Under the pieces are notes generated by a model, which saw nothing but the letters and a program-made list of their open reading frames with translations, ran no database searches and was not told the DNA's origin. Positions 43,443-45,268 of a stretch of 64,000 nt of DNA are shown here, piece after piece. Numbering within the stretch: position 1 is the stretch's first letter; the number at the start of each line of letters is the position of its first letter. The translations under genes were made by a program, and so were the position numbers. The stretch is from positions 32,465 to 96,464 of the forward strand of contig JBDNFW010000039.1 in NCBI GenBank assembly GCA_041689615.1. The letters are read 5' to 3'. The DNA comes from Gammaproteobacteria bacterium. Its GTDB lineage: Bacteria; Pseudomonadota; Gammaproteobacteria; Eutrophobiales; Eutrophobiaceae.

Positions 43443-44279
43443 TTAAATAACATCTGCAATTTTTTTCTCTGTTCTACAGAAAAAGAGCAGGCCCGTTAAT
43501 AAAATAAATAACGAAACAAATGCCGATACTATCAACATAAGTCCAGGCGCATTTTCTTCTGTCCCAAATAACGACCACCTAACCCCTTCAATCACTCCAA
43601 CCATCGGATTAATTCCATAAACTGAACGCCATGGTTCGGGTAACATACTGCTGGGATACACTACTGGTGATGCAAATAACCATAGCTGAATTAAGAAAGG
43701 CACCACATGACGGACATCTCGAAAAAGCACATTCATTGTTGCAAACCATAATCCAACACCTAAAGATGTAACACATGCTAATAAAATAAAGAATGGGATC
43801 CATAATATATTCATGCTTGGCAACATCCCGAAGAAAGGCATCATTAATAAAAGAACGATAAACGCCAGTATAAAATCAACAAAACCAGATAAGACAGATG
43901 CAATTGGAATAATTATTCTTGGAAAATACACTTTCTTTATTAAATTTGAATTACTAACAAGACTTTCTGAGCATTGCGTTAAACCATTTGCAAAAAATAT
44001 CCATGGAACCAAGGCTGCAAAACTAAAAATTGTGTAAGGAATATTATCAGATGGAATTTTAGCGATATAACCAAAGAAGATAGTGAATATGATCATTGCT
44101 AGTACTGGCTGAATTATCGCCCATGATGCACCTATTATGGTTTGTTTATAACGAACTTTTATATCACGCCAAATAAAAAAATATAATAACTCACGATATT
44201 TCCATATTTCAACGAGTTTGTTAAACGAGCAACCTTTACTCGATTTAATGACAGTTATGTGACAAGGCGCTTCATTCAT
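43443..44279 (-). CDS. wzm: ABC-2 type transporter permease Wzm
   Basis: 278 aa, six TM. N-terminal IWKYRELLYFFIWRDIKVRYKQT typical of Wzm/KpsM. Confidence 0.85.
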   Translation of the reverse strand: MNEAPCHITVIKSSKGCSFNKLVEIWKYRELLYFFIWRDIKVRYKQTIIGASWAIIQPVLAMIIFTIFFGYIAKIPSDNIPYTIFSFAALVPWIFFANGLTQCSESLVSNSNLIKKVYFPRIIIPIASVLSGFVDFILAFIVLLLMMPFFGMLPSMNILWIPFFILLACVTSLGVGLWFATMNVLFRDVRHVVPFLIQLWLFASPVVYPSSMLPEPWRSVYGINPMVGVIEGVRWSLFGTEENAPGLMLIVSAFVSLFILLTGLLFFCRTEKKIADVI

Positions 44280-44826
44280 GATCAGGTGTAATTTCTTCCC
44301 ATAATATAAGCTGGGGTCTGCCTTTTAATTTAGGTATAAGTTCCTCATATTCTTCTTTCTTTAGAACTAATGTTCTAATTTTTCTACTAATATATTTTTC
44401 TGTTTTTTTAACTACATCATCTAGATTAGATTGATCAATATCTCCAACCAAAACTAAATCTATTAACCCAGTGTCTTTCCCTTGTGCATAGTCATCAATC
44501 AAAAAAGCTAAGTCTAAATTTCCTAATCTTTCAAGAATACTTTCAAGAATCTGATCCATGCCCAAAGCTTTTTTCACCATTGATTGAAGCTCAGGAAATA
44601 AAGGGTGCTCAGTATTAGCCCGATAATTAATCTGCCGACCTGATTTAGTACTTTTTAATAAACCGGCATCGCTTAATTGCTGTAGTTCTCCAGAAACTTG
44701 GCTAGGCGATATAGTAAATTCATTAGCTAATTCACGTAAATAAGCCTGCTGTTGCGGATTTAGAAATAAACGCATCAAGATACTGATGCGTGTTTTAGAA
44801 GAAATTAGTGAAGATAGTATCGACAT
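44272..44826 (-). CDS. Winged-helix (ArsR-like) transcriptional regulator with C-terminal nucleotidyltransferase-like domain
   Basis: 184 aa. TRISILMRLF...QAYLRELANEFTISPSQVSGELQQLSDAGLL HTH. C-terminal DDYAQGKDTGLIDLVLVGD. 8-bp overlap with wzm. Confidence 0.6.
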   Translation of the reverse strand: MSILSSLISSKTRISILMRLFLNPQQQAYLRELANEFTISPSQVSGELQQLSDAGLLKSTKSGRQINYRANTEHPLFPELQSMVKKALGMDQILESILERLGNLDLAFLIDDYAQGKDTGLIDLVLVGDIDQSNLDDVVKKTEKYISRKIRTLVLKKEEYEELIPKLKGRPQLILWEEITPDHE

Positions 44827-44828
44827 TT

Positions 44829-44875
44829 CATGTACGCTATTATGTTCTATTAATTAGAACATAATAGCGTACATG
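44829..44875. promoter_or_regulatory. Near-perfect 47-bp palindrome (21-bp perfect arms CATGTACGCTATTATGTTCTA / TAGAACATAATAGCGTACATG, 5-bp spacer) abutting the regulator start codon; candidate operator
   Basis: Verified base by base. It lies 2 nt upstream of the regulator ATG (minus strand). Confidence 0.55.
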
Positions 44876-45268
44876 GTTGATATTTCAAGGAGAAATATTT
44901 TGAATTACATCACAAAATGACTCTTTGTATTAGAAGATTTATGTAGTAAATAATTATTTAAACAATATTATATTTAATGGTCGCAACAAACTCTGGTTTT
45001 ACAATTGAAACAACAAATAAGCAAACAGAAGAAATAAACAACCATTCCCAGCTATAATCTAACCATATTTTTTCCAGTTATGACTGCAAGAAATGGAGTC
45101 ATTACGATGCCAAACGACCAGTCGGATGCCCTTTTTACCGTTTTTCCCATTCAAATATTTCATGAAGTTGTAATTTTCTATTCATAACATTCTTTCATTC
45201 TTTGGAATTATTCAGGAACACTTAAGCCCAATAGTAAAAAATACTTATTTTCAGTTGATGAATTAATG

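Follow-up and report, generated by a model that had tools for sequence, protein, structure and literature searches.

To our knowledge, surface polysaccharide operons that depend on ABC transporters are usually described without a dedicated repressor encoded in cis. Here, we report the analysis of a 64-kb stretch of DNA from a gammaproteobacterium (GenBank assembly GCA_041689615.1, contig JBDNFW010000039.1; hereafter the window), in which the gene of a small two-domain protein, which we denote the regulator, heads a block of glycan genes and is preceded by a perfect palindrome. Comparison with related loci indicates that this palindrome is probably the operator of an autorepressor, through which the adjoining regulator would gate the glycan genes behind it.

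Architecture of the regulator locus

The regulator gene and the 13 co-directional glycan genes downstream of it lie on the minus strand (Table 1). The block contains wzm, an epimerase/dehydratase, a UDP-Glc/GDP-Man dehydrogenase, wzt with a Wzt_C domain, four methyltransferases, GT2 and GT4 glycosyltransferases and open reading frames (ORFs) of unknown function. An original prediction, made from the letters of the window, had placed the regulator at the head of a wzm/epimerase/dehydrogenase/wzt/methyltransferase block and in overlap with wzm; the coordinates bear out the overlap, and the co-directional gene order supports the placement. Residues 2–17 of the regulator are conserved at the amino-acid level across orthologues and across phyla, and because the N terminus is thus conserved as protein, we take the ATG at 44826 as the real start. 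A database entry that is 99% identical (P0001, 168 amino acids) begins 16–17 codons later, and its start is probably mis-called.

The palindrome consists of two 21-nt arms (44829–44849, CATGTACGCTATTATGTTCTA; 44855–44875, TAGAACATAATAGCGTACATG), which are 100% complementary and are separated by the 5-nt spacer TTAAT; its edge lies 2 nt from the regulator ATG. Repeat search and ORF call thus agree with the original prediction on arm length, spacer and distance. The arm half-site is single-copy in the window at up to three mismatches and had no occurrence in 100 shuffles. No other perfect hairpin-type repeat in the 64 kb is as long, the runners-up being perfect, overlapping arms of 12–13 nt. At its outer end, the downstream arm contributes an additional ATG, 5 nt ahead of the start codon (44826–44832, minus strand), which opens an out-of-frame, 8-codon ORF; similar extra ATGs occur in the related loci L075, L077 and L002, and an in-frame one in L080.

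Table 1 Features of the regulator locus, in coordinates of the window
Feature	Position	Strand	Remarks
Regulator, ArsR-like winged helix (about residues 1–96) and degenerate MNT-like domain (about residues 97–178)	44272–44826	minus	184 amino acids, ATG start
Conserved core of the candidate operator, TGTTCT-N7-AGAACA	44843–44861	.	One exact site in the window
Perfect 47-bp palindrome, candidate extended operator	44829–44875	.	Close relatives: perfect arms of 18–25 nt, outer sequence differs
−10 hexamer TATTAT	44861–44866	minus	Within the upstream arm, abutting the left half-site; 10/12 consensus matches, 16-nt spacer
−35 hexamer TTGAAA	44883–44888	minus	Promoter scan; same hexamer in close relatives
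Inferred transcription start, about 44854–44855	44852–44856	minus	In or at the edge of the spacer; deduced from the −10 position
CRP-like site TGTGATGTAATTCAAA, candidate second input	44899–44914	minus	10 nt 5′ of the −35 hexamer
wzm	43443–44279	minus	Pfam ABC2_membrane; overlaps the regulator by 8 bp
Co-directional downstream block, presumed co-transcribed	32099–44279	minus	Largest intergenic gap 107 nt
SxtJ-like remnant, frameshifted	44957–45185	minus	tblastn E 9e-11 and a second frame; coordinates approximate

A conserved core at the regulator start

For comparison, we gathered 70 genome loci, 80 metagenome loci and 8 loci with the exact protein (cited here by number, L001 onwards). Together they gave 126 distinct upstream regions, which were anchored on the start codon; in the genome loci, operator sites were searched over 12.5 kb per locus. 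Exact GTTCT-N7-AGAAC sites were found in 30 of the 70 genome loci. L016 has two of them and the other loci have one, and every locus with an exact core has one site 15–45 nt 5′ of the regulator start. With GTTCW-N7-WGAAC as the pattern, 78 of the 126 upstream regions carry the core (consensus cTATaaTGTTCTaAAAAAtAGAACAaAAtA). Most of the others hold an equivalent inverted repeat at the same place: TGAG[TC]A...T[AG]CTCA in 14 regions under a strict definition, with imperfect sites of the same type among 24 unclassified regions, and GTTC-N9-G[AT]AC in 10. Symmetry across the family is strong at positions 4–8 from the axis and weaker at positions 9 and 12–14.

A search of the window for further copies of the operator returned none; the sole other match, at 21947 with two mismatches, is within chance expectation. 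The original prediction had named a multicopy, repetitive extragenic palindromic (REP)-like element as the finding that would speak against it. The repeat is single-copy in the window and has one core site per related 12.5-kb locus, and this single occurrence, together with the constant tie to the regulator start, means that the palindrome is not a dispersed repeat. A REP-like or miniature inverted-repeat transposable element (MITE)-like origin, or a role as intrinsic terminator of the upstream glycosyltransferase genes, is thus hardly credible to us. What speaks for such an element is the hairpin shape and a terminator-like flag, which was raised on the plus strand only, where no gene ends at or converges on the palindrome; on the minus strand, AAATGTCG / AAATGTCGATAC comes after the stem, without a U tract.

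The half-sites change together with the predicted recognition helix of the regulator. Ser-type helices (S[PT]S[QHV][VI]; SPSQV, SPSHI and STSQV) pair with GTTCT/AGAAC in 78 of 78 cases, Asn-type helices (S[TS]N[SA]V; STNSV and STNAV) pair with TGAG[TC]A/T[AG]CTCA in 14 strict cases, and SPNAI helices pair with GTTCA-N7-TGTAC. This joint change of half-site class and helix supports an operator that has co-evolved with its own regulator. The proposal of an autoregulatory operator, as originally made for the window, thereby gains support from a core at the same place in 78 of the 126 loci, from its single occurrence and from the co-variation with the helix.

The core overlaps a promoter

The upstream regions share a common layout: a TTGACA-like −35 hexamer, 15–18 nt, a TATAAT-like −10 hexamer, directly afterwards the inverted repeat, and then 3–25 nt to the start codon. 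At least four of six TATAAT matches fall at exactly this −10 position in 52 of the 78 class-A loci, and TTGACA stands 15–18 nt upstream of the −10 hexamer across the family. L075 has the same promoter as the window, and L019 has a 12/12 consensus promoter that ends 1 nt before GTTCT. In the window, the predicted operator core would cover about −7 to +11 of a σ70 promoter, which is a classic place for repression by occlusion.

Comparison of the loci shows the anatomy of the site, its conservation, its single occurrence, its overlap with the promoter and its change together with the helix. These features suggest a mechanism, in which we infer that the regulator binds, that it represses, where transcription starts and that a ligand acts. 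From the σ70 promoter (TTGAAA, 16 nt, TATTAT), the regulator gene would be transcribed, and wzm and the glycan genes that follow would be co-transcribed with it. The regulator, presumably as a dimer of its ArsR-like winged helices, would bind the inverted half-sites TGTTCT and AGAACA. Once on the operator, it would stand in the way of RNA polymerase, so that its own gene (by negative autoregulation) and the export and precursor block would both be repressed. Its C-terminal half, which adopts a minimal-nucleotidyltransferase (MNT) fold, would act as a signal-sensing or oligomerization module that releases repression.

A CRP-like site 5′ of the promoter is kept at the same distance in 15–16 gammaproteobacterial relatives and is a perfect TGTGA-N6-TCACA in L075. 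Its centre lies about 54 nt from the operator axis, or around −52 from the predicted start, a position that is atypical when set against Escherichia coli class I or class II CRP sites. A divergent plus-strand promoter that would use the mirrored TATTAT was considered and rejected, as the only −35-like hexamer (TCGACA, 44820–44825) is 12 nt off. Inside the regulator gene, codons 12–21 (44770–44791, minus strand) contain a terminator-like hairpin, ACGCATCAGTATCTTGATGCGT followed by TTATTTCT; it is probably coincidental, although it could attenuate transcription just past the start.

Evidence for and against an RNA hairpin

Several observations weigh against an autorepressor operator as the account of the palindrome. 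The core that is shared family-wide is short (5 + 7 + 5), and a perfect palindrome of 47 bp exceeds what an operator needs. Substitutions in the outer arms are compensatory, a pattern not expected from sequence-specific protein contacts, and among close relatives sense-strand mismatches of the G–U type exceed those of the A–C type by 27 to 10, hinting at a constraint at the RNA level. As the original prediction had stated, no Shine–Dalgarno-like purine run is visible ahead of the regulator ATG in GCGTACATGAA. The −10 hexamers of class-B promoters are poor by consensus scan. Finally, independent switches of helix and site are few, so that as few as two or three evolutionary events may underlie their co-variation.

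Some of these points would be explained if the palindrome acted in the messenger RNA. If the whole palindrome is transcribed, a 21-bp stem 2 nt before the AUG could block translation of the regulator or serve RNA processing or stability (RNase III), at least in transcripts that read through from the upstream glycosyltransferase genes. Besides the missing Shine–Dalgarno sequence and the G–U excess, the stem itself is predicted to be highly stable (−36 kcal/mol for the 111-nt region, z = −11), and a scan of the minus strand between the GT4 gene and the palindrome found no terminator-like site. Among 17 close relatives, double changes affect 11 of the 21 pairs, and 84% of cells are paired compared with 27–50% in slid controls, a score that 0 of 500 shuffles reach; these covariation counts come from related sequences, however, and processes at the DNA level would give the same result. 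Folding is similarly two-sided: in the degenerate relatives L071, L073 and L086 the sense strand folds better than the antisense strand, whereas over 72 loci the antisense strand folds slightly better (43 versus 24).

What counts most against the RNA is the promoter. Because the conserved −10 hexamer sits inside the upstream arm, the regulator's own transcript should lack that arm; it should have a 5′ untranslated region of about 28 nt with the downstream arm only, and since it would carry only one arm, a hairpin that occludes the start codon is disfavoured. Moreover, symmetry across the family is limited to the 5-bp core, in which sequence rather than mere pairing is kept and which is too short for a stable hairpin. 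A scan of 44000–45600 against Rfam (E ≤ 1) gave chance-level matches only, the best scoring 21–29 bits against gathering scores of 74–200. We therefore judge the hairpin improbable. The start-occluding hairpin that had been offered as the alternative to an operator is not supported as the main mechanism, and the idea survives for read-through transcripts in this lineage only.

Length and perfection of the arms

The autorepressor reading accounts for the core, and the perfect 21-nt arms call for separate treatment. Perfect arms of at least 17 nt beyond the spacer occur in 9 of the 78 loci, namely the window, six or seven close relatives (77–87% protein identity) and the desulfobacterial L066. 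Among the 17 close relatives, 8 have perfect arms of 18–25 nt with differing outer sequences, and the outer-arm pairs stay complementary as they differ (CGC/GCG versus CAC/GTG, GTA/TAC versus ATA/TAT, ATCAT/ATGAT versus AGCAT/ATGCT); in the sister loci L071, L073, L074, L076, L078 and L001, the arms have decayed. Arms of this length and perfection are thus, by comparison of these loci, a feature of the lineage that is not needed for the function common to the family. The compensatory pattern fits any of three processes: selection acting on a hairpin or cruciform structure, cooperative contacts with additional half-sites, or templated homogenization of a quasi-palindrome.

Homogenization, in which template switching during replication would copy one arm onto the other at a short pre-existing operator, with the extension neutral or nearly so, is an explanation that we hold tentatively. 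Templated mutation at quasi-palindromes is an established mechanism, and it would suit both the bimodal pattern of perfect arms in 8 of 17 relatives and heavily decayed arms in sister loci, and the independent appearance of long arms in L066 (20 nt) and in class-B loci (12–14 nt). The arms also exactly occupy the gap between the −35 hexamer and the start codon. On the other hand, the 64-kb window has no second long perfect palindrome and hence no general tendency of this kind, and selection remains compatible with the process.

A more doubtful possibility is that the outer arms form a second, weaker pair of half-sites, to which the regulator would bind cooperatively, either as two dimers or as a tetramer held together through its MNT-like domains. 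Extra TGTTCT units exist in L066 (TGTTCT-N4-TGTTCT-N7-AGAACA-N4-AGAACA) and in L009, in which a direct-repeat extra half-site lies 10 bp away; the outer arm of the window contains TGTACG, the right half-site of the Desulfovibrionaceae class; and the symmetry at positions 9 and 12–14 is above background across the family. Yet the outer sequence varies in close relatives (TGTACG, TATACG, TATACA and TATCCG), the spacing is 12 bp in the window as against 10 bp in L066, and compensatory change is not what sequence-specific contacts would lead one to expect.

A winged helix fused to a degenerate MNT fold

The regulator has more than 3,000 homologues, and proteins from different phyla are 60–89% identical; the nearest genome loci are from a Pseudomonadota metagenome-assembled genome (L001, 82%) and from Thiotrichaceae UBA973 (L002, 78%). 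No homologue was found in the phage collection searched. Profile hidden Markov models place the N-terminal half near the ArsR-type helix–turn–helix (HTH) families, with scores (cutoffs in brackets) of 23.6 (22) bits for Pfam HTH_5, 24.5 (27) for HTH_20 and 48.6 (55) for NCBIfam HTH_metalloreg. Pfam and NCBIfam gave no match on the C-terminal half, and NTP_transf_2 and Polbeta were absent even at E 10.

An AlphaFold model built on 108 orthologues (predicted local distance difference test score, pLDDT, 88) comprises helices at residues 2–7, 11–21, 30–37 and 41–53, strands at 57–62 and 65–70 and a helix at 77–87. These elements form the winged-helix fold α1–α2–α3–αR–β1–β2–α5, for which the top Foldseek matches are AntR, SqrR, HlyU and CzrA (probability 1.0, target TM score 0.64–0.76). 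The C-terminal half adopts the MNT fold, with Foldseek matches to 2rff and to the MntA antitoxins 6m6u, 7aer and 8xeh. The model and the Foldseek matches thus uphold the two folds of the original prediction, a winged helix and a nucleotidyltransferase-like C terminus, with the correction that the catalytic motifs are degenerate. In alignment with 2rff and with L159 and L160, the motif hG[GS]...[DE]x[DE] is not intact: GS is replaced by D111–D112 and SDID by L121–I122–D123, with a two-residue deletion. Because the canonical GS and SDID are replaced, the classical nucleotidyltransferase catalytic set is absent and the domain looks catalytically degenerate, as far as its residues tell. The replacing residues are invariant or near-invariant in the 108 orthologues, and further invariant charged residues are D118, D123, D137, K141, E143, R148 and R151. 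The protein lacks any cysteine, its only conserved histidine is H74, after the wing, and there is no recognizable metal or persulfide sensor site.

Relation to PDC-M05

PADLOC matches residues 3–163 of the regulator to PDC-M05A (PDLC04368, E 2.3e-33); for bona fide PDC-M05 members, E lies between 1e-75 and 1e-82. PDC-M05 is described as a toxin–antitoxin-like candidate defence pair of a nucleotidyltransferase and a HEPN protein (PMC12988326), and a tested representative protected E. coli against phage to some extent (PMC12881386). The pairs on Comamonas and Bradyrhizobium plasmids are 28–34% identical to the regulator; in them, the nucleotidyltransferase motif is intact and a PDC-M05B gene lies alongside. 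On this evidence of full-length homology to A subunits with B partners, the regulator could be an antitoxin-like A subunit of a HEPN/MNT module, of type VII toxin–antitoxin or candidate phage-defence kind, that is merely located in a glycan locus, with the palindrome as the module's own operator and no role for the glycan genes. The PDC-M05A-type homologue L160 has an 11-nt inverted repeat (CCCATATTGGG-N10-CCCAATATGGG) between its −35 hexamer and ATG.

We regard such a resident module as very improbable. Neither a PDC-M05B gene nor a HEPN partner stands beside the regulator, whose next gene is the overlapping wzm and whose previous gene is GT4, and matches of the B type were obtained in L159 and L160 only. 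The catalytic GS and the first Asp of the DxD are replaced in the whole clade, the synteny with glycan genes holds across two phyla, and identities of 60–89% across phyla are unlike those of fast-evolving toxin–antitoxin genes. In the desulfobacterial loci L017 (3198–3946) and L022 (6549–7269), a complete pair of HEPN (NTase_sub_bind) and MNT genes lies directly behind the regulator and overlaps its stop codon, as two separate insertions of a HEPN/MNT module at the same spot. These HEPN genes were considered as partners of the regulator and rejected, since each is followed by its own canonical MNT gene.

A broader proposal, which we put forward as speculative and think unlikely, is that a partner-less, degenerate descendant of PDC-M05 HTH–MNT proteins has been domesticated as a signal-sensing gatekeeper of glycan export operons in Gammaproteobacteria and Desulfobacterota. 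In the lineage of the window, its operator would have expanded to a perfect palindrome of 47–51 bp with a double role, on the one hand as the site of repression and on the other as a hairpin or cruciform structure able to silence read-through or respond to supercoiling. The operons so governed would be O-antigen-like and, in the window, lie beside a pilin gene and a putative pilin glycosyltransferase. Pilins and surface glycans serve as phage receptors or shields. If the proposal is true, the gatekeeper could couple a defence-type sensor to the remodelling of the cell surface.

The surrounding glycan and pilin genes

The gene downstream of the regulator is a glycan gene in most loci, with small toxin–antitoxin modules occasionally inserted. 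In distant taxa it is wzm, a Wzx-type flippase, DegT, NeuB, a nucleotide-sugar enzyme or a glycosyltransferase. Close relatives share the order pilS, pilR, pilin, a 622-amino-acid protein, GT2, GT4, variable genes, regulator, wzm, epimerase, dehydrogenase, wzt, and by this gene order the regulator appears as the marker of entry to a variable glycan block. Two ORFs of the block in the window, at 38643–39818 (391 amino acids) and 34956–36035 (359 amino acids) on the minus strand, have no Pfam or PADLOC match.

The spacer ahead of the regulator (44827–45268) is 442 bp long, and conserved regulatory DNA is limited to its last 100 bp or so. It had been taken as free of genes, which does not hold, because it carries a frameshifted SxtJ-like remnant. 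In L071 and L074, intact genes for an SxtJ-like protein, a carbamoyltransferase and a GDSL(-lipase) protein lie between GT4 and the regulator; as these loci keep intact genes there, we read the remnant in the window as the scar of a lost SxtJ/carbamoyltransferase/GDSL block.

Genes for a PilS-like kinase, a PilR-like σ54 activator and a type IV pilin (49393–53046, minus strand) lie directly 5′ of the glycan genes, with the same synteny in L073. That these genes adjoin the glycan genes suggests that the cluster may serve pilin glycosylation alongside or instead of the O-antigen of lipopolysaccharide. Directly downstream of the pilin gene, a 622-amino-acid ORF (47417–49285, minus strand) without a Pfam, NCBIfam or PADLOC match has about 9–11 hydrophobic segments, an N-terminal ‘YDDY’ loop and a soluble TPR-like C terminus; the gene is kept after the pilin gene in L071 and L073 and precedes GT2–GT4 in L075–L078. 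Its product is a candidate pilin glycosyltransferase that looks like the GT-C type and is TfpW-like by position.

Discussion

As a kind of device, an autorepressor whose palindromic operator overlies its own promoter is ordinary. As far as we found, what is undescribed is a partner-less family of HTH proteins with a degenerate MNT domain, related to PDC-M05A, that heads glycan export operons, and likewise perfect palindromes of 47–51 bp that are kept by compensatory change. A literature search for ArsR/nucleotidyltransferase regulators in O-antigen or wzm/wzt clusters, or for HTH–MNT fusions, returned nothing specific, and only mentions of PDC-M05 were relevant. A small gene with a sharply defined operator at the entry of such glycan operons in more than 100 independent loci offers a testable control point for surface-glycan expression in largely uncultured bacteria of the sulfur cycle and a clean natural case in which to follow how a transcription factor and its site co-evolve. 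It is also a likely case of a toxin–antitoxin or defence component re-used as a conventional regulator, and the small family of perfect 47–51-bp palindromes should help to separate selection from templated mutation.

Comparison with known systems

With PDC-M05A, a subunit that combines an HTH with a KNTase-like nucleotidyltransferase domain, the regulator shares the order of its two domains, homology over the full length and, in at least one bona fide member, an inverted repeat in the promoter. It differs in lacking a HEPN/M05B partner and the canonical catalytic set, in heading glycan export and biosynthesis genes and in being far better conserved across taxa. A mechanistic parallel is offered by ArsR/SmtB repressors such as SmtB, CzrA, CadC, HlyU, SqrR and AntR, in which an imperfect or perfect inverted repeat classically overlaps the gene's own promoter. 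The regulator resembles these repressors in its winged-helix fold, in its weak profile matches and in the inverted repeat over its own promoter, a trait present in 78 of the 126 loci with variants in most others. In contrast to them, it has neither a cysteine nor a sensor site, carries an additional C-terminal MNT-like domain and stays below the cutoff for HTH_metalloreg.

AbiEi, of the AbiE type IV toxin–antitoxin/abortive infection system, likewise uses an N-terminal winged helix to bind inverted repeats in its own promoter, with negative autoregulation, and is functionally tied to AbiEii, a DNA-polymerase-β-type nucleotidyltransferase. That nucleotidyltransferase, however, is a separate toxin protein, whereas here the nucleotidyltransferase-like domain is fused to the winged helix, and PADLOC showed no match to an AbiE model. 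A different solution is known from RfaH/ops (JUMPStart), a control element at the 5′ end of long enterobacterial O-antigen and capsule operons that acts by antitermination through a leader RNA/DNA element. Both RfaH/ops and the palindrome sit at the 5′ end of a polysaccharide operon; here, the control would lie in a promoter-overlapping repressor site and a regulator encoded in cis.

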